Virus record (IMG/VR): IMGVR_UViG_3300037067_013225
Span: 64,001 to 128,000 of that record
From: a virus
Lineage: Duplodnaviria > Caudoviricetes
Direction: 5' to 3' (one strand)
Length of the DNA stretch: 64,000 bases
Part shown: positions 1,185 through 24,262 of the stretch, piece after piece
Layout of the letters: each line of letters begins with the position of its first letter
Position numbering within the stretch: the stretch's first letter is position 1
Notes under the pieces: generated by a model
Seen by the model: the letters and a program-made list of their open reading frames with translations, nothing else
Database searches by the model: none
What the model was told of the DNA's origin: nothing
Position numbers and translations under genes: made by a program

Positions 1185-1189
1185 GAGGT

Positions 1190-1546
1190 ATGTCTAAGTA
1201 TTATGACGAGTTTACGATAGAGTCGCTACGCACCATGTCTCAGGAAGTATGGGATATGTGTGTCCAGCCGTATACCGACTGGACACGGACAGAATGGTTG
1301 AGACTTGAGCCACGTACAGATTATATATTTTATAGAGGGGGTTTGGTGGGGAGTATAAATGCTGTGACCGATGGTTGGCGATTAGATATTTATGATGGTA
1401 GACTTTTGGAACACATTGGTGCTACAGATATGGCATATGGTTGCTCGTTAAATACCTTTTACATAAATTCGATCAAGCGTCTAAAAACATTTCTTGACAT
1501 ACAATATGAGAATCTAGATAAACAGTTTGTGATGATCGATTTCTAA
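1190..1546 (+). CDS. Hypothetical early protein with C-terminal IDF tag (ends FVMIDF)
   Basis: 118-aa ORF directly after the promoter, TAATG-coupled to the next ORF. Confidence 0.75.
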   Translation: MSKYYDEFTIESLRTMSQEVWDMCVQPYTDWTRTEWLRLEPRTDYIFYRGGLVGSINAVTDGWRLDIYDGRLLEHIGATDMAYGCSLNTFYINSIKRLKTFLDIQYENLDKQFVMIDF

Positions 1547-1914
1547 TGGTTAGAAATAACATAAAAATTGAGTTGCTTCAGGATTTACCAGGGAAGATTT
1601 TGCGGACGTTTTCTGCGTGGGATCATAATCACTGGATTGAATATAGTTGTGATAATTTCGAAACCAACGTCTGTATATTCGAAAACGATAGATTTTTAGG
1701 TTTGATTACCTGTCGCGATGCAATTTTCAAATCGGTTTCTGACACTCTTTGGGTTTTTGACGCTATTTGGTATGAAAAATGTGAGTTATATCTTTTGATT
1801 AGCGATGTTACAGTCATAGAGAATACGACTGTGTATAGTCGTGGTACATTTGACGAATTATTATCCTTTCTGGTCGGCACAGATATGTGTTTGATGACCG
1901 AAATCGATTTCTAA
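1546..1914 (+). CDS. Hypothetical early protein with C-terminal IDF tag (ends MTEIDF)
   Basis: 122-aa ORF with overlapping stop/start. Confidence 0.75.
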   Translation: MVRNNIKIELLQDLPGKILRTFSAWDHNHWIEYSCDNFETNVCIFENDRFLGLITCRDAIFKSVSDTLWVFDAIWYEKCELYLLISDVTVIENTTVYSRGTFDELLSFLVGTDMCLMTEIDF

Positions 1915-1915
1915 G

Positions 1916-2230
1916 ATGCATGGTACATATACTGAGCATTGCGGATATTTGGATCAGCCTCCGAATTCTATCACGAAGCAGGTTTTTGTTTATTTGCCGG
2001 AATATTTACATCAACGCACGAGGATGTATTCTGCCGGAGGGCGTATTGAATTTATATTAATGGGGGATTCGGGTCGTTGTAAATGGTATTTCACGGGGCG
2101 TTATGACTTTGATGTATTTGAACATGGTCTAAATTATGGAATACTTCGTGAACATCGTGCAAAATGGTTCGCGGCAATGATTCTGTGTGCATATGATGAT
2201 GAGAGAGAATATTGTATGGTGGATTTCTGA
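1916..2230 (+). CDS. Hypothetical early protein with C-terminal VDF tag (ends YCMVDF)
   Basis: 104-aa ORF in the same operon. Confidence 0.7.
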   Translation: MHGTYTEHCGYLDQPPNSITKQVFVYLPEYLHQRTRMYSAGGRIEFILMGDSGRCKWYFTGRYDFDVFEHGLNYGILREHRAKWFAAMILCAYDDEREYCMVDF

Positions 2231-2270
2231 TGTGCGTGATTAAGAGTGCAAATCACTTGAAGAGCAAAAT

Positions 2271-2849
2271 ATGTATGTGATTACAAACGAAAACATGAAC
2301 AATGATGGTTTGTGGGAAATCGGCATAAAACGTTCCGGTTTTGCTTACGCCAGCCCGGAGCTAGCCGTGCTTGTGCAACTCGCATACGAGAGATTCGAAC
2401 ATTTCAGGATTTTCGAAGCATTGGGAGAGATGAACCATCCTATACGTTCTAACGGTAAGTTTACACTTTTGCGAGAGACCTATGTGCCGGAATTCTCCAC
2501 AAATCAGCGCATTTGGTTTGCGATTCAATGCGCGCTAGCCGTGTGTGATGATCCTGTGTTCGTGTCGTGGGCGAATGCCTGGATTGATGGGACTGATCGA
2601 AGCGTTGAGGCTGCCAAAACTGTTCGTGAGAAGCTTTGGGCCGATGCTATTGCTGATGCTGCTGATGCTGCTGCTTATTATGCTGCTGCTAGTGCTGCTA
2701 GGGCTTTTGGGCCTGCTTTTTATGTCGCTTATGCCGATTATTATGCTGCCGCTCATGCTGCGCACGCCACTCCAAGCATAAATTTCACTGATATCGCCGC
2801 CACCGCTCTGAACTTTGATTTGAGAGAATTCCAAGAAATTGATTTCTGA
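2271..2849 (+). CDS. Ala-rich helical (Imm5-like?) phage protein with C-terminal IDF tag; paralog of 23382..23984
   Basis: 192 aa with an AADAAAYYAAA low-complexity tract, ending FQEIDF. DNA is nearly identical in blocks to the minus-strand copy. Confidence 0.75.
   Translation: MYVITNENMNNDGLWEIGIKRSGFAYASPELAVLVQLAYERFEHFRIFEALGEMNHPIRSNGKFTLLRETYVPEFSTNQRIWFAIQCALAVCDDPVFVSWANAWIDGTDRSVEAAKTVREKLWADAIADAADAAAYYAAASAARAFGPAFYVAYADYYAAAHAAHATPSINFTDIAATALNFDLREFQEIDF
2330..2386 (+). repeat. 57-bp exact repeat, inverted copy at about 23863-23919 (part of a longer paralog homology)
   Basis: acgttccggttttgcttacgccagcccggagctagccgtgcttgtgcaactcgcata occurs here and as its reverse complement near 23.9 kb. 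Confidence 0.9.
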
Positions 2850-2851
2850 GC

Positions 2852-2880
2852 TTGACAAACGTACTGGATTGTGGTAGTAT
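2852..2880 (+). promoter_or_regulatory. sigma70-type early promoter with extended -10, probably leaderless
   Basis: TTGACA (2852-2857), 17 nt, TG-n-TAGTAT (2875-2880). The ATG at 2886 is 5 nt downstream. Confidence 0.75.
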
Positions 2881-2885
2881 GGAGT

Positions 2886-3209
2886 ATGAGCGAAGCTGAG
2901 AACGAGTTTGTGGCGCTAACGAATAAGGCATTTGGCCCAAAAGTGCGGCCCGCGCATGACTTTTATCCAGATATCGCATTACCGGCAGATTTGCAAGATG
3001 AATGTATGGAGGCATATATGCGGGGCGATTGGAGAACCGCATGTCTTCTGACAGATATCGCTAGCTGTTATAAGACGGTTTGGGAAAATGGTTCCGTTAA
3101 AGATATCCTTGTCAAACCGGATCGTCTGAAATATTTGTATGAAATTCTATCGCAAACACGATCTCGTGCTGCACAAATATGGATGTATGGAGTACATGAT
3201 GGGACTTGA
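2886..3209 (+). CDS. Hypothetical protein
   Basis: ORF track 2871..3209. Start moved to ATG 2886 because the GTG at 2871 lies inside the promoter. Confidence 0.65.
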   Translation: MSEAENEFVALTNKAFGPKVRPAHDFYPDIALPADLQDECMEAYMRGDWRTACLLTDIASCYKTVWENGSVKDILVKPDRLKYLYEILSQTRSRAAQIWMYGVHDGT

Positions 3210-3597
3210 TGCGTATGTTTGTTATCGAGTGGAAGATCCAGAAATCAGTTCTTGGCACAGATATCCCCTGCTTAATGATTATATGTGGGATCTATATCAG
3301 TTAAAATTGGAATATATCGATGAAGATGCAAACGATAACGATGATTCCTATTATCTTGATAGAATGCGTCGCGATGCAAGTTGGTATGACTTTGAAGTGC
3401 CGCTTAATTTGGTTGATGTGGATAATTTAGAGGCTACTATCAAGGGTGGATTATGGCCTAGGCGGGAAAATTGTACAGATGAGCGTTGGGTTGAGGAGTT
3501 GAAGCGGTTGAATACCTCTCGTGATCTGGAACTGGTAACTGAAATGCGCAAGGTTCTACTTGATGGTAAGAAAATTTATTATCGAGCGGCAGGATGA
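3199..3597 (+). CDS. Hypothetical protein of the MGLD.Y N-terminus phage family
   Basis: MGLDAY start with GGAG at 3189-3192; ORF track 3139..3597. Confidence 0.65.
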   Translation: MGLDAYVCYRVEDPEISSWHRYPLLNDYMWDLYQLKLEYIDEDANDNDDSYYLDRMRRDASWYDFEVPLNLVDVDNLEATIKGGLWPRRENCTDERWVEELKRLNTSRDLELVTEMRKVLLDGKKIYYRAAG

Positions 3598-3791
3598 GAT
3601 ACGATTGTCATTATGTAGTTTCTTGCACCAAAACGCTCCTGACTATGGGCGAAAAACCATATCAGGAAATTGTTGCGGTTTTTCATACGCAAGATGAGGC
3701 GAAAAAATATATAAAATCTCAACCTACCGGTATTATTGGGATATATGATGTCTCTTGCTATGATTATGTTCAAATAGAGAGTGAGGAATAA
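3594..3791 (+). CDS. Small hypothetical protein
   Basis: 65 aa, ATGA-coupled to the upstream gene. Confidence 0.55.
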   Translation: MRYDCHYVVSCTKTLLTMGEKPYQEIVAVFHTQDEAKKYIKSQPTGIIGIYDVSCYDYVQIESEE

Positions 3792-3865
3792 AAGATGAAT
3801 GATATATCTTACAATATGCAAGCTAAGGGAACGACTATTGTATCCGATATTAACGCTATTAAGTA

Positions 3866-4321
3866 TTACCAAATTATAGATCTTTGTAGAGCCTTGGCTG
3901 CTCTGATATCAGCCATATCTTTTAGAGTTTTCTTTTTATGGCAATTTTTACAAAGCGTTTGTAAATTAGACAAACTCCAATACGATATATCGCGTGGTGC
4001 CAACGCTAACGGGACGATATGATCCATATCCCAATCTATAACAATCTTGCCGCAATGAGCGCATCGGCCCTTATCTCGCTCTCGCACACGACATCGTAAC
4101 CATGCTGGATCTTGCATTTCTAATGCTCTCAGATATTGTTCACGGCAATCTCCATCGCACCAATGGCGCGCCAAGTTAGGAGTGCCGTCTTTTTTCGGCA
4201 GCATCTTTCCGCACAAATGGCAATAACCAACAGGATATTTTTCCGATTTAACTAGCTCGATAATCGGATGCGGTGGCGGTGTTCTATGAGTTGCCCGTTT
4301 TTTAGCCTTGTGCCTTGACAA
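3866..4321 (-). CDS. HNH endonuclease
   Basis: VRERDKGRCAHCG...DMDHIVPL...NLQTLCKNCHKKKT, plus an N-terminal CxxC zinc motif. Confidence 0.85.
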   Translation of the reverse strand: MSRHKAKKRATHRTPPPHPIIELVKSEKYPVGYCHLCGKMLPKKDGTPNLARHWCDGDCREQYLRALEMQDPAWLRCRVRERDKGRCAHCGKIVIDWDMDHIVPLALAPRDISYWSLSNLQTLCKNCHKKKTLKDMADIRAAKALQRSIIW

Positions 4322-4343
4322 TGGACCTTCCCTGTGTTAAACT
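4315..4343 (+). promoter_or_regulatory. sigma70-type promoter
   Basis: TTGACA (4315-4320), 17 nt, TG-n-TAAACT (4338-4343). Confidence 0.65.
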
Positions 4344-4375
4344 GTAGAGGCTCTAAAACTATACCCAGGTGGATC

Positions 4376-4624
4376 ATGAATAACGAGATATATGATTTTT
4401 CAGGATGCGCTCATAAATGGATTGACGATGGTGTTTACAAAGATGATGGAAATACTCCCACATATACTTATCAAAAATGTTCTATATGTGGAGCTACCAG
4501 AACACTGGATATAAATGGTGATTGTGTTCAAGGATCGTTTATCTTAATGGACGATATATTGTTTTTACGCGATTTAATGGAAAAAGATATCGAACCGTTA
4601 ATGGAATCCGGAGATATGCGATGA
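4376..4624 (+). CDS. Small hypothetical protein with CxH..CxxC possible metal-binding motif
   Basis: CAHKW...KCSICG. Start placed at ATG 4376 downstream of the promoter (track 4334..4624). Confidence 0.55.
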   Translation: MNNEIYDFSGCAHKWIDDGVYKDDGNTPTYTYQKCSICGATRTLDINGDCVQGSFILMDDILFLRDLMEKDIEPLMESGDMR

Positions 4625-5352
4625 GATATCTAATAATTTTATTGCTATTTTTAACATCGTGTCCGCATAAAACTAGTTCTTTTGATTGGGGAAGTCAGCC
4701 ATATCAGAATATTGTTCCGCCGCCCATCGGTAGATGGGCTGCAACTCCCACGATATCATACAATGGTGAACTTTTCTCATCGCAATCTATTAGGCCCGAT
4801 TGGGCCTTAAATAGCGCTACATCAACGTTTCAGGAAGAATTGATAAATATTTCTAAGTGGTGCGATGGGATCGGTTACAAGATTGGTTCCGGATCTGATA
4901 TAGATGTCTATTTTTATTATGAGCCATATACAAAGAAAACATCCTCTATAGGCGATGATTGTCTAGTCATAGTAGAGCCACCGGGGAAAGCTACAAGCAC
5001 GGCTTCTCCGCCCGCGCCCGGATCTAATTATTCCGGTGTAGCGATTGTAACATCCGATAATCGTACCATTAGTCATGTCGATGTGTGGTTGAATATCAAT
5101 AAATATCAGGTATTTTATGACGAATATAAAATCCGATATCCTAAAGCATCTGATAAAGAATTAAAAACGTGGGCTGTCAAAAAAGAAAATGCGATTTTTG
5201 CAAGGATTATCTGGCACGAGTTGGGTCATGCCCTGTTTGGACTGTCCGATGACAGTCAAGGCTCTACTAATGGAACTATGGTATACGCAACCATGACAAT
5301 ACCATATAATACGGAAGAAACCGCAGTTATCAAATGGATGTACGGATTATGA
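4621..5352 (+). CDS. Lipoprotein zinc metalloprotease (zincin/metzincin-like)
   Basis: Signal peptide with lipobox MRYLIILLLFLTSC, HELGHALFG zinc motif and a downstream Met (GTMVY). Confidence 0.7.
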   Translation: MRYLIILLLFLTSCPHKTSSFDWGSQPYQNIVPPPIGRWAATPTISYNGELFSSQSIRPDWALNSATSTFQEELINISKWCDGIGYKIGSGSDIDVYFYYEPYTKKTSSIGDDCLVIVEPPGKATSTASPPAPGSNYSGVAIVTSDNRTISHVDVWLNINKYQVFYDEYKIRYPKASDKELKTWAVKKENAIFARIIWHELGHALFGLSDDSQGSTNGTMVYATMTIPYNTEETAVIKWMYGL

Positions 5353-5693
5353 GATATAATCTCCACAACATACCCGGTAAAAGGTTTGGCCCAGAATATT
5401 TTCCCCATGGTCTTGCATCTTGTGGAGGTTCACGTATCTTTGACAAAATGGCTGGAGACAGAATTCCGTATTTAAGAGGTATGATCTGCATATATAGTGG
5501 TATCGATGATCGTTTAGTTTTTTTATTTTTACCAGATGATTATACCATAATTAGCGTGCAAAGCGATATAGTGTACGAGAACCTTCAAGAACATCTCAAT
5601 GGAGAGGATTTTAGACGATCTCAAGATGAGGTTTGTAATTTTATACTAGATCTTCTAGCCCAGACATATGAATTAACGGAGGTTGATTTCTAA
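5349..5693 (+). CDS. Hypothetical protein with C-terminal VDF tag (ends YELTEVDF)
   Basis: ATGA-coupled start at 5349; TAATG-coupled to the protease gene. Confidence 0.7.
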   Translation: MRYNLHNIPGKRFGPEYFPHGLASCGGSRIFDKMAGDRIPYLRGMICIYSGIDDRLVFLFLPDDYTIISVQSDIVYENLQEHLNGEDFRRSQDEVCNFILDLLAQTYELTEVDF

Positions 5694-6220
5694 TGACATG
5701 TATTGTTGCGATCAAAACTAAAGATGCCATATTTATGGGTGGTGATTCTGCTGGTGGCAATGCTTACGGAATCCAATCTAGATCCGATCCTAAAGTTTTT
5801 AGAAGTGGTGGATTTGTTATCGGATACACCACTAGTTATCGTATGGGGCAAATTCTACAGCATGGTTTTGAATTTGTTACACCTGAAGGCGATCCTGACG
5901 CGTATATGTTTTCATTGTGTAACGCTGTGGCTAGTAAATTAACTGATTTAAATTATGCAAAATTGGAAAATAATGTTATAGACGGTGGTACTTTCCTTAT
6001 TGGATGGAAAAACCACTTGTATGCAGTTTATGATAATTTTCAGTATGCTCGGTTTAGGGACAATTATGCCGCAATCGGTTCCGGGGAGGAATATGCACTG
6101 GGATCGTTGTTTTCAACTCAAAGTATAGACGATCCCATAAAACGAATCACCATTGCATTAGATGCAGCCACGAAGTTTTCGTCTCTTGTTGCAAAGCCAT
6201 ATATTTTTGAGCATACATAG
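5693..6220 (+). CDS. Proteasome beta-subunit / HslV-like N-terminal threonine protease (Ntn hydrolase)
   Basis: M-T-CIVA N-terminus (Thr1 nucleophile), GDS at 16-18, Lys near position 33 (DPKVF), AIGSG.EYALG motif. Confidence 0.85.
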   Translation: MTCIVAIKTKDAIFMGGDSAGGNAYGIQSRSDPKVFRSGGFVIGYTTSYRMGQILQHGFEFVTPEGDPDAYMFSLCNAVASKLTDLNYAKLENNVIDGGTFLIGWKNHLYAVYDNFQYARFRDNYAAIGSGEEYALGSLFSTQSIDDPIKRITIALDAATKFSSLVAKPYIFEHT

Positions 6221-6229
6221 AGATAATAT

Positions 6230-6913
6230 TTAATCTTTTATGAGGATAAATCCTAAATTTTTAATATTTCGATACCAAGACGATACTCGATCTGAAGCGT
6301 TGCCCTCAACTGTCCAGATAACAGTATCGGATACAACGGCTCTAACAATACCCGTATGTTTAAATCCAGTAGGACCACCCTTTACTACGAACAAACATCC
6401 AGGATAAATATCTTTAATATCCTCAGTATAGAGCTTGAGTTTGTCGGCTTCTTTTTTTAGACGAGAACTTGAGGATTTTTCTTTTATGGGAGGTTTGTTG
6501 GGTGCTGCTGCAAGTCTGAGGCAGTAATTTAGAGCGAAGTATGCGCACCACGGATATTTTTCACCCTCAAATCCACCGGTATACTTTTTTACAAATGGTC
6601 CGCTATTCGGACCACCGATTTCTTTTGCGCCAGCGGCTAATTCTGTTAGTGCTATTTTTAATAATCTCTCAGCCAAAGATGGATATGCGGAAGTTTTGGC
6701 TTTTGGCAGATTTTTCACCGCAGTTATCAATATGGGGAGTGTTTTTTCACCAACGATGCCATCGATTTCAAGATCATAATCTTTTTGGAATTCTCTCACA
6801 GCGTGTTCTGTGGCGGGTCCGAAAACACCATCTATGACCAGATGTGATCCGTATTTGTCTAGTAGTTTTTGTAGAGCCTTGACTTTGGTTCCTGTGTCGC
6901 CGTTTTGTAACAT
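6230..6913 (-). CDS. Endolysin: peptidoglycan-binding domain plus CHAP amidase
   Basis: DGVFGPATEHAVREFQ...DGIVG (PG_binding_1); PWCAYF, HTGIV and TVEGN (CHAP catalytic Cys/His). Confidence 0.9.
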   Translation of the reverse strand: MLQNGDTGTKVKALQKLLDKYGSHLVIDGVFGPATEHAVREFQKDYDLEIDGIVGEKTLPILITAVKNLPKAKTSAYPSLAERLLKIALTELAAGAKEIGGPNSGPFVKKYTGGFEGEKYPWCAYFALNYCLRLAAAPNKPPIKEKSSSSRLKKEADKLKLYTEDIKDIYPGCLFVVKGGPTGFKHTGIVRAVVSDTVIWTVEGNASDRVSSWYRNIKNLGFILIKD

Positions 6914-6942
6914 ATCTTCTCCGTTTATTGGCTGTTAATATC

Positions 6943-6965
6943 AGCTTACCCCTTGAATATACCCC
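6943..6965 (-). promoter_or_regulatory. Candidate late-type promoter elements GGGGTATATT and GGGGTAAGCT upstream of the endolysin
   Basis: The same GGG-TAnnnT motif precedes the neck, sheath and baseplate genes. Confidence 0.45.
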
Positions 6966-6981
6966 GTTTTTGTGGTACAAT
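6953..6981 (+). promoter_or_regulatory. sigma70-type promoter of the glycosylation operon
   Basis: TTGAAT (6953-6958), 17 nt, TG-n-TACAAT (6976-6981). Confidence 0.65.
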
Positions 6982-7004
6982 ATAGTGGCAACCAGACCGA
7001 GACC

Positions 7005-8927
7005 ATGATATACGACTGCTTTAGATTTCTAAATGAGAATGATATGTTGGAGATACGTTTCCAACAGCACTCGTTTGCGGATAAATTTGTCATCATCGAA
7101 TCGGATCAAACCACATCTGGATTATCCAAGCCATATAATTTCGATGTGGAGCGATTTAAGAAATATACTGATAAAATTATCTATTTGCAAATCGGTCCGA
7201 TAGATATCGCAAGAGAGAAATATGAATATTTCGAAAACAATATCGAACGATGGAATAGAGAGCTTGTTCATCATGGTGCATTAAAGCAAATATTACCCTT
7301 GCTCACTAATCGTGATATTATTATGTGGTCTGATGTCGATGAAATGTTGAAAAGTCCCCCCATATATGGGAATATAAGATATATTTCTGGATTATATTAC
7401 TACTACTTTAATAATCGTCTATATGATAGGAAAAATAATAATTTCTTATCTTGGAAATATCAGGTAAGTTTCACAAAAAAAACATTAGAGAAATATAATC
7501 CGTTTCATCTTAGGAATAGTAACACTATCAAATGGGATATACATGAGGATGCCGGTTGGCATTTTGCATATATTGGCGATGTAGAAAAGCTTAAATATAA
7601 GCTTGAGGCGGCTGCGCACCAAGAATACAATACCGATAAAGTCAAAGAACAGCTATCTGAGAAGATTAAGCAGGGTGTGGATTTTGCTTCAGACAGATAT
7701 CCCGGCAAACAGACACCAATTAACGAATTACCACAATGTATTATTGATAATCAAGAAAAATATAAGCCATTTATTCTGTTGGATCGTCCGATAGTGGAGA
7801 ATATCTCAGTAAAAGAGCGTAGGATGAAGGATTTGCGTAATTTGCGTGTAGCACAGCGCGCAGAGGCTAGGCGAGTACAAGAGGAATGTAGATTGGAGGC
7901 ACTGCGCAATCTGCATGAGGCTAAAAAGGCAGAACTGCGCCGCATACAGGCGGAAAAGGAGGCCAAAGCAAACGCGGCACAACGTAGGTTGCGTAAACGT
8001 GACAGATATACCGCCCCTCCCATTGTCTCACCGGTTGCTTCCGTTAGCAACGTGGATGAATTTAATATTTTAATGCTTGGATCTTTGGGAGATGTCATAT
8101 GTAACTCGGTAGTTGTCAATAATATTCGCCTATCATATCCAGATGCTAAAATTACATGGTGCATAGCCAAGAAATATCTCAAAATTTCATCCAATATCAT
8201 TGGAGTGGATGATTGGATTGTTGCTGATGATATCGTAGGTCACGATATACACGAAATAGATAGAGAGCAACCAGCATTTAAGGAAATATTTGCGTCAAAA
8301 CCGAATTTAATTGTTTTACGTGACTGTTCCAGTCCATTATACGGTAGTAATTGGACCAATACTGGTGCAAATCTAATGGAAACTGCGATTAGAGATCTGG
8401 CAAGATTTGTATCGGTTCCAATCAGAGAGAAGAAAGGTACTTTTACTATCTTTAGGGACGATATAATTAAATGGCGTGACTGGGTGAAGGATAACGATAA
8501 GTATATTTTCTGGGAATTTACCCCCATCAGCACAACGCCTTTAATGGTGCCGGAAGAATATTTTGCTCTTGCGGACAAATTATATAAAGATCTGCGATGT
8601 AAGTCTATATTCTCATGTTCACCAGAAAATAGGGATAAATATATCTCGTACAATTCAAAAAACATCCGAATATGCGACCTATCGTTAGCTCAAGTAGCAG
8701 CGGGAGTTAAACAGCAAGGCTCTATATTTATGGGATGTACATCAGCACAAACCTGGGCTGTATGTGAGACATCCAATGTCCCAATTTTAGAGCTATTGAA
8801 TCCGGCAGTTACAAAAAAATTGCGTGGAATATCGGTTAAACAATCACACTATACTAATCCTAGCGAAGTAATAACGGTAAAATCATATCAGGTAATAAAA
8901 GATGCGATCACGTCACTACAAAGATAA
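7005..8927 (+). CDS. Bifunctional glycosyltransferase: GT17-like N-domain, charged coiled-coil linker, GT9-like C-domain
   Basis: MIYDCFRFLNE...DKFVIIES...SDVDE...AGWHFAY (GT17-like); LGSLGDVI....NIRLSYPDAKITW (GT9/heptosyltransferase-like). Confidence 0.75.
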   Translation: MIYDCFRFLNENDMLEIRFQQHSFADKFVIIESDQTTSGLSKPYNFDVERFKKYTDKIIYLQIGPIDIAREKYEYFENNIERWNRELVHHGALKQILPLLTNRDIIMWSDVDEMLKSPPIYGNIRYISGLYYYYFNNRLYDRKNNNFLSWKYQVSFTKKTLEKYNPFHLRNSNTIKWDIHEDAGWHFAYIGDVEKLKYKLEAAAHQEYNTDKVKEQLSEKIKQGVDFASDRYPGKQTPINELPQCIIDNQEKYKPFILLDRPIVENISVKERRMKDLRNLRVAQRAEARRVQEECRLEALRNLHEAKKAELRRIQAEKEAKANAAQRRLRKRDRYTAPPIVSPVASVSNVDEFNILMLGSLGDVICNSVVVNNIRLSYPDAKITWCIAKKYLKISSNIIGVDDWIVADDIVGHDIHEIDREQPAFKEIFASKPNLIVLRDCSSPLYGSNWTNTGANLMETAIRDLARFVSVPIREKKGTFTIFRDDIIKWRDWVKDNDKYIFWEFTPISTTPLMVPEEYFALADKLYKDLRCKSIFSCSPENRDKYISYNSKNIRICDLSLAQVAAGVKQQGSIFMGCTSAQTWAVCETSNVPILELLNPAVTKKLRGISVKQSHYTNPSEVITVKSYQVIKDAITSLQR

Positions 8928-16958: not shown

Positions 16959-18214
16959 TGTTAGGTACAGCCGGTGCTCGATGGGATTCTGATATAAATG
17001 ATAATGAAATAGATTTTCTCATACTAAGATTTTATCGATATATTTGTGAACAAAGAAACAATTATAAATACATTGCTGATAAAATTTATGTTGGTTTTGA
17101 TGCTCGACCGCAAAGTGCCGTTTTAGCTAGAAGGATAAAGGCATTAATAGATATTGCGCCAAACGACGACAGGATACATTTGGTTAATGGTGTTCCGATT
17201 ACAACGCCCATGTTGTGTCGTATCTGCCAAGAACATAGGGCTTATGGTATGATGTTTACTGCTTCGCACAATCCCTCCAACTATGTTGGTGTTAAATTTA
17301 TTACTCCGGACGGGACTTTATTTGAGAGCGGCGATGTTTCACGTATCAATGGATTGCATGTAGGATTGGATGTGGAATATCATCCGGTAATGGAGTTCTA
17401 TCGACTTTTCGATCTGGTTAAGTTTAAAAATAAAGAATACTCATTCAGTACATTGGGCGGGGCTGCAAGGGGATATATAAGGGATATTTTTCAGGGTGGA
17501 ATTGAGGAAGATAATACACCGGCATTGGGTAATTCTTTAGAGCCAAGGGAGAACAATGTTGTTTTGCCGAGACAGAATGGAATAACGTTCGCATTGGATG
17601 GTGATGGTGATCGATTGTTGGTATTCATTGATGGTCAGGCGCTCACACCCAGTGAAACTTTCATGTTATTTGTCAAGGCATCGATGAAATATCGCGCTTT
17701 GTCTCATGCTATAGCGGCATACAATATGTCTAACACAATAGAGCAATATTGTACAGAAAATTATATATCATTTGAATGGAGTAAAATAGGATTCCAGCAT
17801 ATAACCCCCAAATATAAAGCTGTATCTGGTTTTGTTGCTGCTGGTGAGGAATCCGGTGGATTAGCTTTGCATCCCGTTTTCAGTGATCGGGATGGTATAG
17901 CAGCGGCGATAATCCTGATGGAATATAATGAGAATTATGGTCTGCGACATGAATTGAGCTATATTCGCAACAGATTCGGACGTATGCGATATAATAGATA
18001 TGATTTACGCAATCAGACTATATCCGACATTACCAAGAAAATTCCGGAACTAAATTCATTGATGCAGAATATTGATGGAGAAAAATATCTGTTTGAGTCT
18101 GGTTGGATGATGCTTAGAGAATCTGGAACGGAGCCGCTAACTCGCATATATTGCGAAACATATTACGATGATAATTTTGATCTAAAACAATTTATCGATG
18201 GCAGAATATCTTGA
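16952..18214 (+). CDS. manB: Phosphomannomutase/phosphoglucomutase
   Basis: TASHNP phosphoserine loop, DGDGDR metal loop, GEESGG, RESGTEP. Confidence 0.9.
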   Translation: MLMLGTAGARWDSDINDNEIDFLILRFYRYICEQRNNYKYIADKIYVGFDARPQSAVLARRIKALIDIAPNDDRIHLVNGVPITTPMLCRICQEHRAYGMMFTASHNPSNYVGVKFITPDGTLFESGDVSRINGLHVGLDVEYHPVMEFYRLFDLVKFKNKEYSFSTLGGAARGYIRDIFQGGIEEDNTPALGNSLEPRENNVVLPRQNGITFALDGDGDRLLVFIDGQALTPSETFMLFVKASMKYRALSHAIAAYNMSNTIEQYCTENYISFEWSKIGFQHITPKYKAVSGFVAAGEESGGLALHPVFSDRDGIAAAIILMEYNENYGLRHELSYIRNRFGRMRYNRYDLRNQTISDITKKIPELNSLMQNIDGEKYLFESGWMMLRESGTEPLTRIYCETYYDDNFDLKQFIDGRIS

Positions 18215-18945
18215 TATCTATAGTAACGCCCATACTTGGTAGGGCGGAATTTATACCTATAATTCGTAAGATTGTCGCATCGCAGAAATATGATAGTTTT
18301 GAATGGATTATTGCCGAAGAGAGAGAAAGTTTCAACGCGCATCAGACCAATATACCAGAAGCGAATTATATAATTGTAGACGGTGGAATGAATATCGGTG
18401 ATAAAAGAAATCTCCTAGTAGAACGAGCAAGTGGAGATATCATTGTAAACTTTGACTTAGATGATTATTATTCACCATCATATCTATCTGCCGCAGCACA
18501 ATTAATCTGCAATTATGCGGCTGTGAATCACGATCCGCTATATCTGTATTCATTGCGGAATAGGACTGTACAAAGAGCCATACGCAGGCCGTATTGGGGT
18601 TCTGGAGCCGTCTATACACGCGATATCTGGGCCAAACACACATATCCTGCCGCAACGGTACGTCAGGGCGAAGACACTGTTTTCTTTCGTAGGATCGCTG
18701 AATTGTACGGTCTTAATCGTGTAGGGGGACTTTTGGCAACCTCACAATTATCGGCGCTGATGTTAGCGATACGTCACGGTGCTAATACTACGGTAGATAA
18801 ACGCCGTGGAAGCGTGATACCGGACAATAGTGCTGAGTTTCTAATGGGGCGGGTTCAAGACAGGGATATTTTGGATTTTTATATGGTTAAAGGAGGTTTT
18901 TCTCGATCAGTGCCTTCAACCGCACGAAGTCGTCGGGTGAGATAA
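18211..18945 (+). CDS. GT2-family glycosyltransferase
   Basis: MISIVTP, IGDKRN.L...ASGDIIVNFDLDDYY, GED. Confidence 0.85.
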   Translation: MISIVTPILGRAEFIPIIRKIVASQKYDSFEWIIAEERESFNAHQTNIPEANYIIVDGGMNIGDKRNLLVERASGDIIVNFDLDDYYSPSYLSAAAQLICNYAAVNHDPLYLYSLRNRTVQRAIRRPYWGSGAVYTRDIWAKHTYPAATVRQGEDTVFFRRIAELYGLNRVGGLLATSQLSALMLAIRHGANTTVDKRRGSVIPDNSAEFLMGRVQDRDILDFYMVKGGFSRSVPSTARSRRVR

Positions 18946-19078
18946 GATTGGCACGTTTGGTTGCAATTTCCGTAATCACAGCATTATAGAACACCGTCAA
19001 CAACTCCTTGGCTCTATAAAGATCGTCTATTTTTTCAATAGCATTTAGAGTATTAGTTTCGATGGGTGTTTTAGACAT
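18887..19078 (-). CDS. Small hypothetical protein
   Basis: 63-aa ORF starting 2 nt after the TlpA stop. Confidence 0.5.
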   Translation of the reverse strand: MSKTPIETNTLNAIEKIDDLYRAKELLTVFYNAVITEIATKRANLISPDDFVRLKALIEKNLL

Positions 19079-19079
19079 T

Positions 19080-19529
19080 CTATTCCCTTATTTTATTCAG
19101 TTTAGAGATAATTTCATTGCGCTGCAACTCACCCACATTTCTAAATTCGGTAGTTTTATCTTTGTGGATGAATACCGTTACAGGAATCGTTTCTGCATCA
19201 TATAGGGATACGGCACGATCTGAAAAACCAAATATCCAGGGATATTTCTGATCATGGATATATTTTACGGGATTACCTTGTTTGTCTACCGCGATACTGA
19301 TAAATGTGATATCTTTATAATCCGGATATATTTTGTTTAGTGTTTTTAATTCGCTCAAGCAATACGGACACCACATCGCGAAAAAATTTAACATTATAGG
19401 TTGGTCATAGTCGGATAATTTTGACTCATTCCCATTAAACGTAATAAAATCGAAATCTGGGGCGATTTTAGTTGCGCTAACTAGGAGAAGGGATACCAAT
19501 ACAGTTATGATTAGATATATTTTCCTCAT
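19080..19529 (-). CDS. Exported TlpA/ResA-like thiol-disulfide oxidoreductase
   Basis: Hydrophobic N-terminal signal, APDF, NFFAMWCPYC..E, cis-Pro motif TIPVT. Confidence 0.85.
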   Translation of the reverse strand: MRKIYLIITVLVSLLLVSATKIAPDFDFITFNGNESKLSDYDQPIMLNFFAMWCPYCLSELKTLNKIYPDYKDITFISIAVDKQGNPVKYIHDQKYPWIFGFSDRAVSLYDAETIPVTVFIHKDKTTEFRNVGELQRNEIISKLNKIRE

Positions 19530-20202
19530 GAATATATTTTGCCCAACTACACATTGAAATTGGGTAAAGGGATTTCAAAATTTTATAGATTTCTTTAGCA
19601 TATTGACGGATTTCATATTGCGCATGATCGTCTAGGCGCAATTTTAAAAAGCGAATCCAATTGAATAAATTGGCACTGATATATGCTGAGGTATAAATAT
19701 TCACAGGCAACACACATCGCGCTAATTCTTTGGACGTACCCATATCAATTAGCGTTTGATACGAGGATAGAGCCTCGTTAGAGGCAGCAATTAGTAATTC
19801 ACGAGCACCATGCGCCACCGATGCGTCTTTGATTGCGCCTTGGGCTTGTATGGAGGTCTTAGACTGCTCTATTTGTAGGCGTTCCAGAGTGGGGATGTAG
19901 AATTCGTTCCAGATTTTCGAAGAAAATCTACCACTAACGAAATTGAAACTCTGAGTTCTGTGCCTGGTCCACTGATTTGCTACAAAAAGCGGCATTTTGA
20001 CGCGGAAAGTAACAAAGCACTGCTCAAATGGACCGGAATGCATGTTTGCGGCCAAATATTCCAATAATTGTTCATCCTTGGCTCTACTAAATTCGGTAGA
20101 TCGCCGTCCAGCCTCAACACTAACTCGTGCGGCATCACAAACTAACTCATCGCTGCCAACACACTGAATTAACTCTATAGATCCATGATCTAGAACATCC
20201 AT
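19477..20202 (-). CDS. thyX: Flavin-dependent thymidylate synthase
   Basis: AARVS, HSGPFEQ, RHRTQSFNFVSGRF (RHRx7SxR), KELARCVLP, LRL..HAQYEIR. Confidence 0.95.
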   Translation of the reverse strand: MDVLDHGSIELIQCVGSDELVCDAARVSVEAGRRSTEFSRAKDEQLLEYLAANMHSGPFEQCFVTFRVKMPLFVANQWTRHRTQSFNFVSGRFSSKIWNEFYIPTLERLQIEQSKTSIQAQGAIKDASVAHGARELLIAASNEALSSYQTLIDMGTSKELARCVLPVNIYTSAYISANLFNWIRFLKLRLDDHAQYEIRQYAKEIYKILKSLYPISMCSWAKYIHEENISNHNCIGIPSPS

Positions 20203-20205
20203 ATA

Positions 20206-20505
20206 TCATCCCCACAAAAATAACACTAGACGCGCAAATGGATTGCGTAATGTATTGTTGCTAGATAGTTTAAACCCCACATAGCAGACAATTTCTAGAG
20301 GGTTATTTCTATCTGCACGAACAATCATATCATATCCTTGTAATTCATTGCTACATTGATTATAATATACTTCCGTTCCACGCACAGATCCGACATGTAT
20401 TGCGTTTTTGGCGACGTCTTTGTAAAATAATTCCGGATCTTCACCAATATTAAATTTCGTCATTACCTTTTCTGCGCCATCGACGCACATGATTTTATAT
20501 TCCAT
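20206..20505 (-). CDS. Hypothetical protein
   Basis: 99-aa ORF with AAGGAG ribosome-binding site. Confidence 0.6.
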   Translation of the reverse strand: MEYKIMCVDGAEKVMTKFNIGEDPELFYKDVAKNAIHVGSVRGTEVYYNQCSNELQGYDMIVRADRNNPLEIVCYVGFKLSSNNTLRNPFARLVLFLWG

Positions 20506-20543
20506 TGTTTCTCCTTGGGTATAATATTTTGCTACCTACCGTT

Positions 20544-20562
20544 GCCCGCGAAAGCGGGCTTT
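20544..20562. terminator. GC-rich hairpin GCCCGC-GAAA-GCGGGC followed by TTT on the + strand
   Basis: Perfect 6-bp stem with a GNRA loop, next to the stop codon of ORF 20561..21019. Confidence 0.55.
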
Positions 20563-21019
20563 AATTTAATTCCAGTTTGAAATTTTTGCCATCATAAGAT
20601 TGTTGCAAAGATATCCTTTTCACATTTAGCGGAGTATAATGTTCATCATTCCGCATAAATCTGATATATTTTGGAGCATTTTCTATAAATACGCATGTTT
20701 GATTATCTTTATCAAATTCAACGTAATAAAATAGCATTTCGATTCTAATAAATGGGTTGCTAATTGTTACTTCCGCTTCCTGCCGTGCCTGGAAACCGCG
20801 TACTCTTGGTTTGGTTTGGCAATCCCACATCTCCGCTAATTCCATCTTACTGTTAGCTACAGCGATATGAGGATATTGACGTTTGAGCCAAGCACGGATC
20901 TGCTCTCCATTAATAAGAAGCGCAGCACTTTCAGATGCCTCCATGGAAAGGGCTAGCGTTATATATTCCTCTTCGTCATAGAGAAAGCTAAATGTATATG
21001 GTGTTTTAACAACAGTCAT
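20561..21019 (-). CDS. Hypothetical protein
   Basis: GGAGG RBS and ATG at 21019. The track start at 21061 lies inside the promoter. Confidence 0.65.
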   Translation of the reverse strand: MTVVKTPYTFSFLYDEEEYITLALSMEASESAALLINGEQIRAWLKRQYPHIAVANSKMELAEMWDCQTKPRVRGFQARQEAEVTISNPFIRIEMLFYYVEFDKDNQTCVFIENAPKYIRFMRNDEHYTPLNVKRISLQQSYDGKNFKLELN

Positions 21020-21040
21020 GTGTTCCTCCGAGAATAACCA

Positions 21041-21069
21041 ATTATACCACGCGCGCTCCAAAAAGTCAA
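21041..21069 (-). promoter_or_regulatory. sigma70-type promoter
   Basis: TTGACT (21069-21064), 17 nt, TG-n-TATAAT (21046-21041). Confidence 0.8.
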
Positions 21070-21089
21070 GGTGTGGGTATGATATTCGC

Positions 21090-21245
21090 GTGGCAAAAGA
21101 AATACGGATTTGTTATGCGAAGTCAAGTAGAGCCTGGGTGTGGGAAATCTGGGACGATGAAAGTCTACTGGATGAGGGGCTGGAGGACGAAATAACTGAT
21201 GCCTTTGAAGCCGCCAGGTTTGTTCTAGAGAACGATGATGACTGA
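21090..21245 (+). CDS. Small acidic hypothetical protein
   Basis: In frame with track ORF 21018..21245. The GTG at 21090 follows GGGTATGAT (21075-21083). Confidence 0.45.
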   Translation: MAKEIRICYAKSSRAWVWEIWDDESLLDEGLEDEITDAFEAARFVLENDDD

Positions 21246-21744
21246 CAAACTTCTTGTTTCATCGATTCCAACAAGAGAATGGAGCTATGCGGATATTCTC
21301 AAGTGGTTGTTTGAGATACGTAGGTCTTGGAATATAAATAATGTTGTCGCAACCACACCGGAACAACTAAGAGATAAGTTAAAAAAGACTGAAGTTCTAG
21401 CTTATATTTATGAGCATTTTTACACAGCAGAACAAATTAAATTAGCAGAGCTAGAGGCTCTACCAAGATACGATTGTTACGATATAATGTATGTAGGGTC
21501 TGATGGCGTTATTAAGATTACTCATAACGGACAGTATGCTATTTTCGCCAAAGGCGTCCTGTATACTTTTTACGATGTTCATGACCCGTTAGTGCAAGAA
21601 ATACTAATCAATTATGTTGATCAATTTACGATATCGGGGCGTAATTATTATTCATACGAAAGTAATCTTATCGATATGAAACACAAAATGCATTTTAAAG
21701 AAAAAGATAAGATATCATCGGATCGATTTTTCCAGGTATATTAG
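21235..21744 (+). CDS. Hypothetical protein
   Basis: 169-aa ORF overlapping the upstream stop. Confidence 0.6.
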   Translation: MMTDKLLVSSIPTREWSYADILKWLFEIRRSWNINNVVATTPEQLRDKLKKTEVLAYIYEHFYTAEQIKLAELEALPRYDCYDIMYVGSDGVIKITHNGQYAIFAKGVLYTFYDVHDPLVQEILINYVDQFTISGRNYYSYESNLIDMKHKMHFKEKDKISSDRFFQVY

Positions 21745-21751
21745 GAGACAT

Positions 21752-22141
21752 ATGGTAGAGCAACGGCAATGCCGTAAATGTAATACGTTTCGTCCAGTGA
21801 CCGATTTTTATGGAAATGCTCCGATTTGCAAATATTGCAACAGGAATAAAGCCAAAGATCGCCGTGTACAATCCAGAACCACAAATCTTAAACGGGTGCT
21901 GGAATATTTGTTAGCTCATCCATGCGTTGATTGTGGCGAAAAAGATCCCGTTGTTTTAGAATTCGATCATATTCGCGGTGAAAAACGATTTACTATCGGG
22001 AGCCATTTATGGTTTCCGTGGAATAAGATTAAATCCGAAATAGATAAATGTGATGTTAGATGTTCCAACTGTCATAAGCGTCGTCACGCTAGAGAAAATT
22101 GCACATCTATGTTCAAATTAAGCAACGGATATAAAGACTAG
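21752..22141 (+). CDS. HNH-type endonuclease with zinc fingers
   Basis: CRKC...CKYC; PCVDCGE.DPVVLEFDH...EIDKCDVRCSNCHKRRH. Confidence 0.8.
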   Translation: MVEQRQCRKCNTFRPVTDFYGNAPICKYCNRNKAKDRRVQSRTTNLKRVLEYLLAHPCVDCGEKDPVVLEFDHIRGEKRFTIGSHLWFPWNKIKSEIDKCDVRCSNCHKRRHARENCTSMFKLSNGYKD

Positions 22142-23079
22142 ATATCTATTTCATATTTGGCGAAAGTTTGTTCGTTTGGATTTGCGTCGGGTCTCATTTT
22201 ATTAAATCGTGGATGTCTTATGGTCCCAGATTTAAACATCTCTTGTCCCGATATTTCACACACTTCGCCGATATATTTTCGTGTATTTAGATCTTTGTAA
22301 AATGTATGACGGTATTCGTCCGTTAATCCGCCACAACTACAACAATGACATAAATTTCCATTGCGATCAAAAAGACCAAGTTCTAACGTCGCGATGCCAT
22401 TACCTAGGAATTTTTTAGATGTACTTGCGGTGTAATCCATTATAACGAAATCCCATGTTTCTACGGCTTTCATTTTTGCCCATGATAAGTGGTGGTATAA
22501 ACCGCATTGAGCTTTTACGATAATACCCTCTGCACCATCTTGTCTGGCAATTTCGAAGGCCATTTGCGAATTATCGGCTCTTATTGTTGGGCATAGTTTG
22601 ACAAATGGATCATCTATGGCTAGCGATTCTAGAAGAAATCTTCTTTCCGAATATGGATGTTTTCTTAAATCTATGATATCAAGATTTCTATACTGTATGA
22701 TATCGAAAATATAATACTTGAGCGGAGCCGTTTGCTGTTGTAGTTCGATGGCTCGTTCTGGAGAGCTTCCAATGATCGAAGTTACCATATTGCTTCCGCC
22801 AAAATCAGACATCAATTCTCCGTCAAAAACGATATCTTTCCCCAAAGATTTCATAAAATTATTTAATTGTGGGCAATGTTGAATTTTATCCAGCATTTTA
22901 TCGTTATAGACAGATCGCCTACGTCCAGTTAGCCGAATATTATTATTGATTTTGGACAATATTTGCCTAGCGCCGTCTAGCTTCACTTCATATGAGCATA
23001 CACCCATTTTCTCCACTCTCTCAACTTTTCCTCCAACTGGGATCGGAGTGAAATCTAGTGGGTCTATCCATTCTGTCAT
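22138..23079 (-). CDS. ATP-dependent DNA ligase (compact type)
   Basis: Motif I EVKLDGAR, motif III FDGEL, IFDII, EGIIVK, and the OB-domain motif IRHPRF..MRPD. Confidence 0.9.
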   Translation of the reverse strand: MTEWIDPLDFTPIPVGGKVERVEKMGVCSYEVKLDGARQILSKINNNIRLTGRRRSVYNDKMLDKIQHCPQLNNFMKSLGKDIVFDGELMSDFGGSNMVTSIIGSSPERAIELQQQTAPLKYYIFDIIQYRNLDIIDLRKHPYSERRFLLESLAIDDPFVKLCPTIRADNSQMAFEIARQDGAEGIIVKAQCGLYHHLSWAKMKAVETWDFVIMDYTASTSKKFLGNGIATLELGLFDRNGNLCHCCSCGGLTDEYRHTFYKDLNTRKYIGEVCEISGQEMFKSGTIRHPRFNKMRPDANPNEQTFAKYEIDI

Positions 23080-23382
23080 TTAAAAATCCACTTCCTTGAA
23101 ATCTTTGTAAGCGGAACAAAACCAATCCAAAGCCTCTACAAAAGAACCACATTCAATTACAGGTGTACAGTTATTCATTTCATCCCGATGATATCTATAT
23201 ATGGAACATTTTGGATTGCACTTTTTATCATAAAGTATATATTTATCAAACAAGATATATCCAAGATATTGTTCGCCCATAAATATGTTTGATTCGTGAT
23301 CTCTACCGTCAGCGCGATATTGTGTGCGAAAGGATCTGTAACGCGGTTCTTCATACGATATCATTTCGTAATCTGTATACAT
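23080..23382 (-). CDS. Hypothetical early protein with C-terminal VDF tag (ends FKEVDF)
   Basis: 100 aa; abuts the ligase start. Confidence 0.7.
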   Translation of the reverse strand: MYTDYEMISYEEPRYRSFRTQYRADGRDHESNIFMGEQYLGYILFDKYILYDKKCNPKCSIYRYHRDEMNNCTPVIECGSFVEALDWFCSAYKDFKEVDF

Positions 23383-23984
23383 TAGAAATCGATCTCCTGG
23401 AATTCTTTTAAATCAAAGTTTAGGGTAGCAATGGCGATATCAGTGAAGTTTATGCTCGGATTAACTTCCGCTGCATAATAAGCAGCATCAGCAGCAAGAA
23501 TAGTAGCGTTAGCATAAGCGGCACGAACAGCAGCATCAGCAGCCCAAACAACAGAATCATTAGTAGCACGGGCGGCAGTCCGAAGCTTGCTTGAGAGATC
23601 TCTTGCGGTTTCGAAGCTTCGATCCGTTCCATTGATCCAGTTCTCCGCCCACGACACAAATATAGGTTCGTCACACACGGCTAGCGCGCATTGAATCGCA
23701 AACCAAATGCGCTGATTTGTAGAGAATTCCGGCACATAGGTCTCTCTTAAGAGTGTGAACTCACCGCTAGAGTGTAGAAAATCATTTCCTTTGCCAGATG
23801 CTTCGAAAATCTTAAAATGTTTGCCAGATGCTTCGAAAATCTTAAAATGGTCGAACGTATCATATGCGAGTTGCACAAGCACGGCTAGCTCCGGGCTGGC
23901 GTAAGCAAAACCGGAACGTGGTTTCCCGATTTCCCACAAACCATCATTGTGCATATTTTCGTCTGTGATCACGTACATGTTCAT
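23382..23984 (-). CDS. Ala-rich helical phage protein with C-terminal IDF tag; paralog of 2271..2849
   Basis: 200 aa, ends FQEIDF, has an internal 10-aa tandem duplication. Confidence 0.75.
   Translation of the reverse strand: MNMYVITDENMHNDGLWEIGKPRSGFAYASPELAVLVQLAYDTFDHFKIFEASGKHFKIFEASGKGNDFLHSSGEFTLLRETYVPEFSTNQRIWFAIQCALAVCDEPIFVSWAENWINGTDRSFETARDLSSKLRTAARATNDSVVWAADAAVRAAYANATILAADAAYYAAEVNPSINFTDIAIATLNFDLKEFQEIDF
23791..23850. repeat. 30-bp tandem duplication (HFKIFEASGK x2)
   Basis: ttgccagatgcttcgaaaatcttaaaatg occurs at 23791 and again at 23821. Confidence 0.95.
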
Positions 23985-24262
23985 CAGAAATCAATTTCCG
24001 TTAATTCGTATTCTTTACATTTTATTACCGGTATGCCCCATAATAGATGAGGTATCACTGACATTTTTTGGATTATCTCACATTGTTTTGGTTCCGCGTT
24101 TATTACGATTTGGGCGTTATTGTTCTGATTTTTTATAGAAAGAATTTGTGAACATATATTTGCGAATATTTCATTTGCGGTCATGCAAAGAGGATCAACA
24201 TACACCGTGTTTATACCGTCTGATACACCATCATCCAGCCTCGGCTCTAAGAAATTTTCCAT
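23984..24262 (-). CDS. Hypothetical early protein with C-terminal IDF tag (ends YELTEIDF)
   Basis: ATG at 24262 is 7 nt after the -10 box. The track start TTG at 24298 is the -35 box. Confidence 0.7.
   Translation of the reverse strand: MENFLEPRLDDGVSDGINTVYVDPLCMTANEIFANICSQILSIKNQNNNAQIVINAEPKQCEIIQKMSVIPHLLWGIPVIKCKEYELTEIDF

Follow-up and report, generated by a model that had tools for sequence, protein, structure and literature searches.

Short docking tails shared by several proteins are well known, among them sliding-clamp motifs, the tip of single-stranded DNA-binding protein (SSB), the tails of phage T7 proteins, degrons, and SspB tethers, each of which serves few, functionally related clients. 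The SSB tip, DDDIPF, and the acidic, Phe-ending tails of T7 gp2.5 and gp4 are disordered segments whose carboxylate and Phe are recognized. The tail at the C-terminus of RB69 polymerase gp43 has been solved on the gp45 clamp (PDB 1B8H), where it meets a hydrophobic pocket and two basic residues, and the T4 gp45 clamp is also bound via short RNase H motifs (PMC3012046) and activates late transcription (PMC2988020). The bacterial beta clamp is a hub that many proteins reach by one short, often C-terminal motif, Q-phi-x-[L/M]-(x)-[F/L], with hexameric versions in SEQVELEFD (the Pol III alpha C-terminus) and LQLELDF (from phage display) (PMC11139829). Here, we analyze a C-terminal tail, ending in [E/M]-[I/V]-D-F, that is carried by eight small proteins encoded in a 64,000-nucleotide stretch of DNA (the window) from a virus of the Caudoviricetes, and by many other proteins of the same genome. 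The genome, IMG/VR record IMGVR_UViG_3300037067_013225, is a single 202,677-bp virus contig with 39.9% G+C, and the window corresponds to its bases 64001-128000; positions given below are those of the window unless they are marked as genome positions.

A strict C-terminal tail on unrelated proteins

The motif [LFYWM]-x-[EM]-[IV]-D-F, followed directly by a stop codon, ends 49 open reading frames (ORFs) genome-wide, including 46 of the 283 genes (approximately 17%) in a greedy gene call; three further tagged ORFs were displaced by overlapping calls. An earlier reading of the window from its letters alone (the sequence-only reading) had described the tail in eight ORFs between positions 1190 and 24262 and had given all eight ends exactly as we find them. 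The tag in that region is real, but it is not confined there, the window holding eight of the 49 tagged ORFs. ORFs ending in [IV]DF number 48 at a length of at least 50 amino acids (aa) and 50 at a length of at least 30 aa, one of the 50 being a 43-aa frame, out of frame inside the gene at 1546-1914, that probably ends this way by chance. The sequence-only reading had suggested counting such termini against a background. In this phage, 46 of 283 termini end in [IV]DF compared to 0.11 expected from amino acid composition, whereas internal [IV]DF is seen 18 times compared to 25.8 expected, and the six-residue form [FLWYM]-x-[EM]-[IV]-D-F occurs 45 times at a terminus and never internally. Given this terminal enrichment and internal absence, the tail is real, highly non-random, and dependent on a free C-terminus.

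Counted back from the terminal residue (position 0), the 49 tails have F49 at position 0 and D49 at -1, I42 and V7 at -2, E36 and M11 at -3, and Q15, V14, and T10 (also M3 and I1) at -4. Position -5 is large and hydrophobic without exception (L18, F17, Y6, W5, M3), and the commonest residues farther upstream are E24 at -6, K14 and R8 at -7, and E12 and D11 at -8. One residue class per site is found at -5, -2, -1, and 0 in all 49 tails, and the extended consensus is [D/E]-[K/R]-E-[L/F/Y/W/M]-[Q/V/T]-[E/M]-[I/V]-D-F-COOH.

The codons behind these residues vary, as the sequence-only reading had pointed out, and the variation is seen at the E, I, D, F, and stop codons. Among tag-ending ORFs of at least 30 aa, Glu is encoded by GAG (21) or GAA (15), Ile by ATT (22), ATC (17), or ATA (4), Asp by GAT (46) or GAC (4), and Phe by TTT (28) or TTC (22), and the stop codon is TGA (24), TAA (23), or TAG (3). 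Wobble use in the tails is approximately that expected from genomic codon rates. Pairwise comparison of the last four codons of all tails gives 1661 synonymous compared to 840 non-synonymous differences, and the eight tail codons of nine paralogous genes, described below, give 97 and 38, respectively. Because synonymous sites are free to vary, selection acts on the peptide and not on the DNA, and a DNA or RNA element or translational coupling is excluded as the cause of the tail.

The proteins that carry the tail were described in the sequence-only reading as mostly unrelated, and among the eight in the window the only paralogs are those encoded at 2271-2849 and 23382-23984. Genome-wide, BLAST of the bodies with the tail removed yields 38 clusters at E<1e-3 and 36 at E<0.1, the largest with nine members and the next with three, followed by a few pairs and otherwise singletons. 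The tagged proteins range from 48 to 474 aa (median 113), and only three Pfam families are represented among the 49: Tad3 (1.8e-27), Radical_SAM (1.3e-12), and Fer4_12 (0.00033). The Tad3 match (PF25185; 95.2 bits against a Pfam gathering cut-off of 27) lies in the tagged protein at genome 187115-187513, spans model positions 1-102 of 119, and stops ahead of the tail, classifying this protein at the level of sequence as a homolog of the anti-Thoeris protein Tad3; a PDB sequence search with it gave no match. The inhibitor Tad3 has been published as a direct binder of the Thoeris protein ThsB (PMC13728456). The tagged radical-SAM enzyme (474 aa) is encoded at genome 193460-194884. The sequence-only reading had also stated that no metabolic or structural gene in the window ends in this way, which holds within the window; outside it, the radical-SAM enzyme does. 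The tagged bodies are of at least three unrelated kinds, namely the Tad3 homolog, the radical-SAM enzyme, and the nine-member alpha/beta family. Since all three are tagged, the tail is not simply the ancestral end of a single family shared by every carrier, an outcome that the sequence-only reading had named as fatal to its proposal.

In the alignment of the nine-member family, the nine tagged paralogs run on past the last family helix with [KR]-E-F-x-E-I-D-F. Two untagged paralogs, at genome 10098-10685 and 197646-198353, end before the tail, in the sequences QALAWQE and QALSWQE, and the DNA behind their stops contains no relic of it. Eight distant homologs from other metagenomes end at the family's last helix, for example with ATKALEY, so for this family homologs elsewhere do lack the tail, a check that had been proposed for each tagged body. 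The stop of the untagged relatives falls exactly where the eight-residue tail begins. Because the outside homologs and the two paralogs stop before the tail, the alignment indicates that the tail was added to folds whose relatives lack it and is not the ancestral end of one family. An AlphaFold2 model of the 192-aa protein of tagged gene 4 (Table 1), made with the family alignment, has a mean predicted local distance difference test score (pLDDT) of 85.7 and a predicted template modeling score (pTM) of 0.85. Its body reaches a pLDDT of approximately 90, with residue 181 closing the last helix, and the segment beyond it, 182-192 (FDLREFQEIDF), is modeled as coil at a pLDDT of 50-61. The tail is thus predicted to lie outside the fold, as a free end directly after the terminal helix.

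Candidate receptors for the tail

We lean toward the interpretation that the tail is a lineage-specific short linear motif acting as an address label, and that such a label is read by a shared receptor seems quite likely. One receptor would recognize the carboxylate at the free end together with the invariant Asp-Phe and the hydrophobic anchors at -2 and -5. With beta-branched residues at -2 and -4 that alternate with acidic ones, the tail could form an extended strand in a groove, with F, I/V, and V/T facing one way. The label would gather many accessory proteins in one place or pass them to one machine. The sequence-only reading had proposed an addressing system of this kind. Its portable, strictly C-terminal, protein-level module on unrelated bodies is borne out, but its single reader was not found: Pfam searches of the phage genome gave no match at E<=1 to the N-terminal and middle domains of DnaN (PF00712, PF02767) or to the N- and C-terminal domains of gp45 (PF02916, PF09116), and they detected no SSB domain and no PDZ domain (PF13180, PF17820; PDZ_2, PDZ_6). 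A very divergent clamp could escape such searches.

We regard a sliding-clamp-type replisome hub, presumably the beta clamp of the host, as the leading class of receptor, an identification that is itself tentative and on balance doubtful. The docking precedents listed in the sequence-only reading are apt here, and the best in-register known tail is that of the RB69 polymerase, SLFDMFDF (gp43 ends in KKASLFDMFDF, as read from NC_004928). Like the tag, this tail lies at the extreme C-terminus and is hydrophobic at -5 and -2, with Met at -3 (E or M in the tag) and Asp-Phe as its last two residues, so that five of its last six positions fall in the residue class of the tag. In the RB69 and T4 clamp system, basic pocket residues meet acidic groups and several proteins share one hub, as would be expected of a reader for the tag. 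However, the searches of this phage detected no clamp of the gp45 type, and its polymerase belongs to the DnaE type and not to family B. In addition, the clamp of T4 serves few clients, each of them engaged in transactions of DNA or RNA, compared to approximately 49 small accessory proteins here.

The beta-clamp hexamers are similar to the tag in that they often occupy a free C-terminus, end in E-L-[E/D]-F where the tag has E-I-D-F, and have acidic flanks; the docking of their hydrophobic pair in subsite I is a further likeness. At the other positions of the motif the picture is mixed: where it ends in F/L, all 49 tags have F, its position 4 is aliphatic in the tags but not L/M, and its aliphatic position 2 corresponds to V14, M3, and I1 compared to Q15 and T10. 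In contrast to the tags, the C-terminal region of the phage DnaE carries SQLNLWE, which contains the canonical beta-clamp pentapeptide QLNLW (L009:14979-15698, minus strand). Because of this pentapeptide and because no clamp of the phage's own was detected, the phage polymerase probably uses the host clamp, and it is for this reason that the host beta clamp is presumed to be the hub.

Two other docking systems were compared with the tag. A class II PDZ ligand has the form phi-x-phi-COOH, which I-D-F-COOH fits, but the two PDZ families searched gave no match in the phage. The SSB and T7 tails share with the tag an acidic stretch and an [I]-x-F-COOH end. The logic of SSB is reversed, however, with one tail meeting many partners where here many proteins carry the tail, and the SSB tip has Pro at -1 in place of the invariant Asp.

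Some candidate readers encoded by the phage were considered individually. The replication module at genome 154976-163036 (L122) comprises genes for a MoxR-like AAA+ protein of 516 aa, a 224-aa ORFan, a 549-aa protein, two small proteins, and DnaE. The 224-aa ORFan, which sits between the MoxR-like AAA+ and DnaE genes, was rejected as a phage clamp. Its model (pLDDT 79.5) has no clear PDB match: Foldseek gave no match at E<=0.001, VIA-align over 48,161 chains gave a best Z of 4.5, and among the top 1000 Foldseek entries the best Z was 3.6, with no clamp. The MoxR-like AAA+ protein has a weak match to the clamp-loader family phrog_168 (3.3e-4). A reader of the MoxR-vWA type was also rejected, all vWA hits belonging to one Ro60/TROVE protein (genome 32577-34109; L003:12577-14106) and the MoxR-like AAA+ gene having no vWA neighbor. 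A complex prediction for three copies of the HslV-like peptidase encoded next to tagged gene 5 together with the 192-aa tagged protein scored 0.00 against a mark of 0.32, which speaks neither for nor against binding.

Close relatives of this phage were absent from the phage, IMG/VR, and JGI collections searched. Megablast against phages gave no match, tblastn gave only a distant huge-phage match, and the terminase has no close relative in IMG/VR. In a pattern scan of IMG/VR, EFQEIDF-stop gave no hits and EFxEIDF-stop gave six, none with more than one tail. The 10 hits of KEFxEIDF-stop in JGI metagenomes consist of one SGNH-lipase family and chance matches, and when genome contigs were scanned for a host family with this ending, the hits were scattered, 19 of them lying in frame at ORF ends, and no family dominated. 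Searches with single genes led to two distant relatives. The first, a Logan sequence (L123:151-6334), encodes a 231-aa ORFan, a 520-aa protein, two small proteins, and a DnaE 48% identical to that of the phage, in the same order as the replication module, and the synteny around the ORFan is kept; it begins just before the 231-aa gene, and the MoxR-like member is thus seen only in the present genome. The second, a 5.3-kb JGI contig (L036), shares with the phage HslV-like (46%), ClpP-like (37%), RuvB-like (38%), and Ro60-like (30%) genes, with the Ro60-like gene adjoining the HslV-like gene. In this contig, a gene upstream of the ClpP-like gene and overlapping its start ends in YDISDIEF; the relaxed motif is otherwise absent from 2268 genes of unrelated loci. 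This single case is at most a hint.

Several observations weigh against an address label read by one receptor. The candidates checked yielded no receptor, and the single shared receptor is an inference from the pattern of the tails. The tag is not traceable in evolution, with no tagged relative in the collections searched, and in the syntenic Logan sequence none of five small genes is tagged. The 14 residues preceding the tail are poor in G, P, and S and rich in A, L, D, and E; with linker residues depleted, the tail lies close behind the terminal helix. The clamp in particular faces difficulties. None of the 49 tags has the defining Gln of the beta-clamp motif, a large hydrophobic residue standing at that position (position 1) instead, and the tag has I/V (I42/V7) where beta-clamp motifs have L/M at position 4. 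No obvious reason places an anti-Thoeris binder or a radical-SAM enzyme on a clamp, and with approximately 49 tagged proteins the polymerase of the phage itself would face competition for the clamp pocket. Because Gln is never present and the anti-defense and radical-SAM clients are unexplained, the clamp is a leading candidate and not a finding.

Other explanations of the tail

The phage encodes two peptidases that bear on a proteolytic role. The HslV-like peptidase (5693-6220, plus strand; phrog_1040, 3.8e-20) is of the N-terminal-Thr type and begins with MTC, so that Thr2 would become the free N-terminal residue. Its family has 1160 hits and 436 IMG/VR loci, and a PDB sequence search with the protein gave no match. 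The ClpP-like peptidase (genome 187811-188431; L011:7811-8428; PF00574, 4.3e-22) is encoded next to RecA and far from the head genes.

Alternatively, the tail may be a handle for proteolysis, either a C-degron that sets when early proteins are removed or a tether, similar to that of SspB, by which host targets are handed to a protease, namely the ClpP-like or HslV-like peptidase of the phage or an AAA+ protease of the host. We consider this unlikely, although it is the rival that survives best. The [IV]-D-F end is reminiscent of I-G-F loops, which dock on ClpP, and of the C-termini of HslU and of HbYX activators. Tails that engage AAA+ machines (ssrA, the SspB peptide, the HslU C-terminus, HbYX) are likewise short C-terminal peptides that bring unrelated proteins to one machine. 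However, these tails belong to other sequence classes, and the known C-degrons of ClpX, Lon, and FtsH are non-polar and not acidic. The cognate unfoldase is also wanting: no protein of the ClpX, ClpA, or HslU type was found in the phage, whose AAA+ proteins are RuvB-like, RecA, and MoxR-like. Gene order offers points in favor of this explanation. Six tagged genes, including that of the Tad3 homolog, flank the ClpP-like gene, the start of the HslV-like gene overlaps the stop of tagged gene 5, and in the distant JGI contig it is the ClpP-like gene that is overlapped by the YDISDIEF-ending gene. Because 17% of genes are tagged, however, chance alone would be expected to place tagged genes beside any given gene, and 80 viral HslV-like loci in IMG/VR showed no recurrent DF tails. 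The direct binding of Tad3 to a host defense protein (PMC13728456) would fit the role of an adaptor.

It is also conceivable, but quite improbable, that the tails bind each other or their own bodies, in a common sheet, a condensate, or a helix cap, and require no separate receptor. The position of the tail directly behind a predicted terminal helix, with no long linker, is compatible with this, and the alternation of hydrophobic and acidic residues would permit strand pairing. However, unrelated bodies can offer no common intramolecular site, AlphaFold2 leaves the tail unpacked on the body, and the invariant Asp-Phe at a free end points to a pocket that reads the carboxylate.

Still harder to credit is a capsid-loading signal of the type of encapsulin cargo peptides or T4 capsid targeting, by which the tagged proteins would be packed into an HK97-type head and injected in the next infection. 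Encapsulin cargo peptides are short and C-terminal, an HK97-type major capsid protein is encoded, and an injected anti-defense arsenal, with Tad3 among its members, would be useful. Against this, the tagged genes lie behind host-type early promoters and none is in a structural block, a cargo of approximately 49 species, one of them the 474-aa radical-SAM enzyme, would be unprecedented, and there is no cleavage-site pattern beside the tail.

Least probable, and already largely refuted, is a cause other than protein function. The ends of the genes could hold a DNA or RNA element, such as a site for recombination, a site for a regulator at the near-palindrome GAAATCGATTTC, or a termination-reinitiation context, or the tail could be inherited from one ancestral family. 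In favor of this, GAA ATC GAT TTC in the tagged gene at 1546-1914 is a perfect 12-bp palindrome, and tagged stops often overlap the next start (TAATG or TGATG). However, the EIDF-encodable palindrome is perfect in that one copy only and is not kept through the wobble and stop variation, no coupled gene follows several of the tagged genes (as at 2230 to 2271 and 2849 to 2871), and the bodies differ in fold and length and have outside homologs without the tail.

Gene setting, promoters, and meaning of the tail

The eight tagged genes of the window and the promoter-like sites near them are listed in Table 1. PHROGs recognized none of the eight proteins.

Table 1. Tagged genes and promoter-like sites in the window.
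Feature	Position	Strand	Description
Tagged gene 1, 118 aa	1190..1546	+	No known family; tail ...LDKQFVMIDF; stop overlaps next start (TAATG)
Tagged gene 2, 122 aa	1546..1914	+	No known family; tail ...DMCLMTEIDF
Tagged gene 3, 104 aa	1916..2230	+	No known family; tail ...DEREYCMVDF
Tagged gene 4, 192 aa	2271..2849	+	Member of the nine-copy family; tail ...FDLREFQEIDF
Tagged gene 5, 119 aa	5334..5693	+	No known family; tail ...AQTYELTEVDF
Tagged gene 6, 100 aa	23080..23382	-	No known family; tail ...SAYKDFKEVDF
Tagged gene 7, 200 aa	23382..23984	-	Paralog of gene 4; tail ...FDLKEFQEIDF
Tagged gene 8, 92 aa from ATG 24262	23984..24262	-	Tail ...KEYELTEIDF
Sigma-70 promoter-like site, near-consensus	1156..1184	+	TTGACA-17-TATACT, 11/12; 5 nt before gene 1 ATG
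Promoter-like site	4315..4343	+	TTGACA-17-TAAACT, 10/12, TG extension; upstream of gene 5 and HslV-like operon
Promoter-like site, near-consensus	24270..24298	-	TTGACA-17-TATAGT, 11/12, TG extension; 7 nt before ATG 24262

Tagged gene 7 contains an exact ten-residue tandem duplication (HFKIFEASGK twice), a recent 30-bp event that its paralogs lack, and downstream of tagged gene 6 is a gene for an ATP-dependent DNA ligase (22138-23079). Directly upstream of tagged gene 5, a 276-aa protein with a lipoprotein-like N-terminus and a zinc-protease HELGH motif is encoded at 4522-5352 (plus strand). The most likely start of tagged gene 8 is ATG 24262, in agreement with the end coordinate given in the sequence-only reading, and not TTG 24298 of the ORF list, since that TTG belongs to a promoter as its -35 hexamer.

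The sequence-only reading had assigned the eight genes to three sigma-70-promoted clusters, and near-consensus sites are present at all three. The total of promoter-like hits per region is not above that expected from shuffled sequence, and for this reason only near-consensus sites count. Genome-wide, near-consensus TTGACA-N17-TATAAT promoters precede tagged runs, often with a TG extension, which supports an early type of expression for the tagged genes. TG-extended sigma-70 promoters are found 5-7 nt before the first ATG at 1156-1190 (plus strand) and 24298-24262 (minus strand) of the window and at genome 24241, 38016, and 147973. Because these promoters end so close to the ATG, the first genes of several early operons would be read from leaderless or near-leaderless mRNA. 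Together with these promoters, strong AAGGAG ribosome sites suggest that the host uses classical sigma-70 and Shine-Dalgarno signals.

A second promoter-like class, GGCTCTATGAA-N15-17-GCTATAAT, lies before several small-gene operons, upstream of genome 5802, 7991, 16435, and 19162. Its upstream half is the heptamer GGCTCTA, which is over-represented and dispersed throughout the window (1-64000), and the class resembles T4 middle promoters, in which an activator box takes the place of the -35 element. The small proteins encoded at genome 3879-4115, 5497-5739, and 16435-16695 end in LDLTDI, PDLTYI, and DTFTDI, respectively, and may be paralogs of one small family or carry a minor terminal motif of a second kind.

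The tagged genes occur in runs of small genes at approximately 1-2, 11, 22-30, 38, 65-70, 87-88, 145, 153-159, 164-168, 177, 184-190, and 193-199 kb of the genome. No tag is found in the blocks at 39-64, 70-87, and 88-140 kb, and none in the head, sugar-synthesis, or tail blocks. The tail/baseplate block opens with a single 3726-aa ORF at 26893-38073 (plus strand) of the window. The major capsid protein is of the Phage_capsid (HK97) type. The phage also encodes a DnaE-type polymerase, RecA, RuvB-like and MoxR-like AAA+ proteins, two DnaB-like helicases, a ribonucleotide reductase, the Ro60/TROVE-vWA protein, and the ClpP-like and HslV-like peptidases.

The literature searched contains no description of such a shared tail, nor of a strict label on approximately 17% of the genes of a phage across unrelated folds. 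Compared to the literature searched, what stands out here is the scale of a putative short linear docking motif, present on approximately 17% of genes, including that of an anti-defense protein. We tentatively suggest a broader view, in which large phages have repeatedly evolved private addressing systems and the label described here plugs dozens of unrelated early and anti-defense proteins into one hub. In the same view, either a sliding clamp seated on the DNA of the phage or a phage-directed protease may serve as this hub, and the arsenal would be localized, delivered, or cleared together. Most small early phage genes have no known function and offer no handle for study. A strict tail common to 49 proteins could assign a sixth of the phage proteome to a single pathway and uncover a new hub in host or phage, and it would offer a portable tag for engineering. 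If the address-label interpretation is true, the receptor of the EIDF label would be a single control point for approximately 49 orphan proteins.

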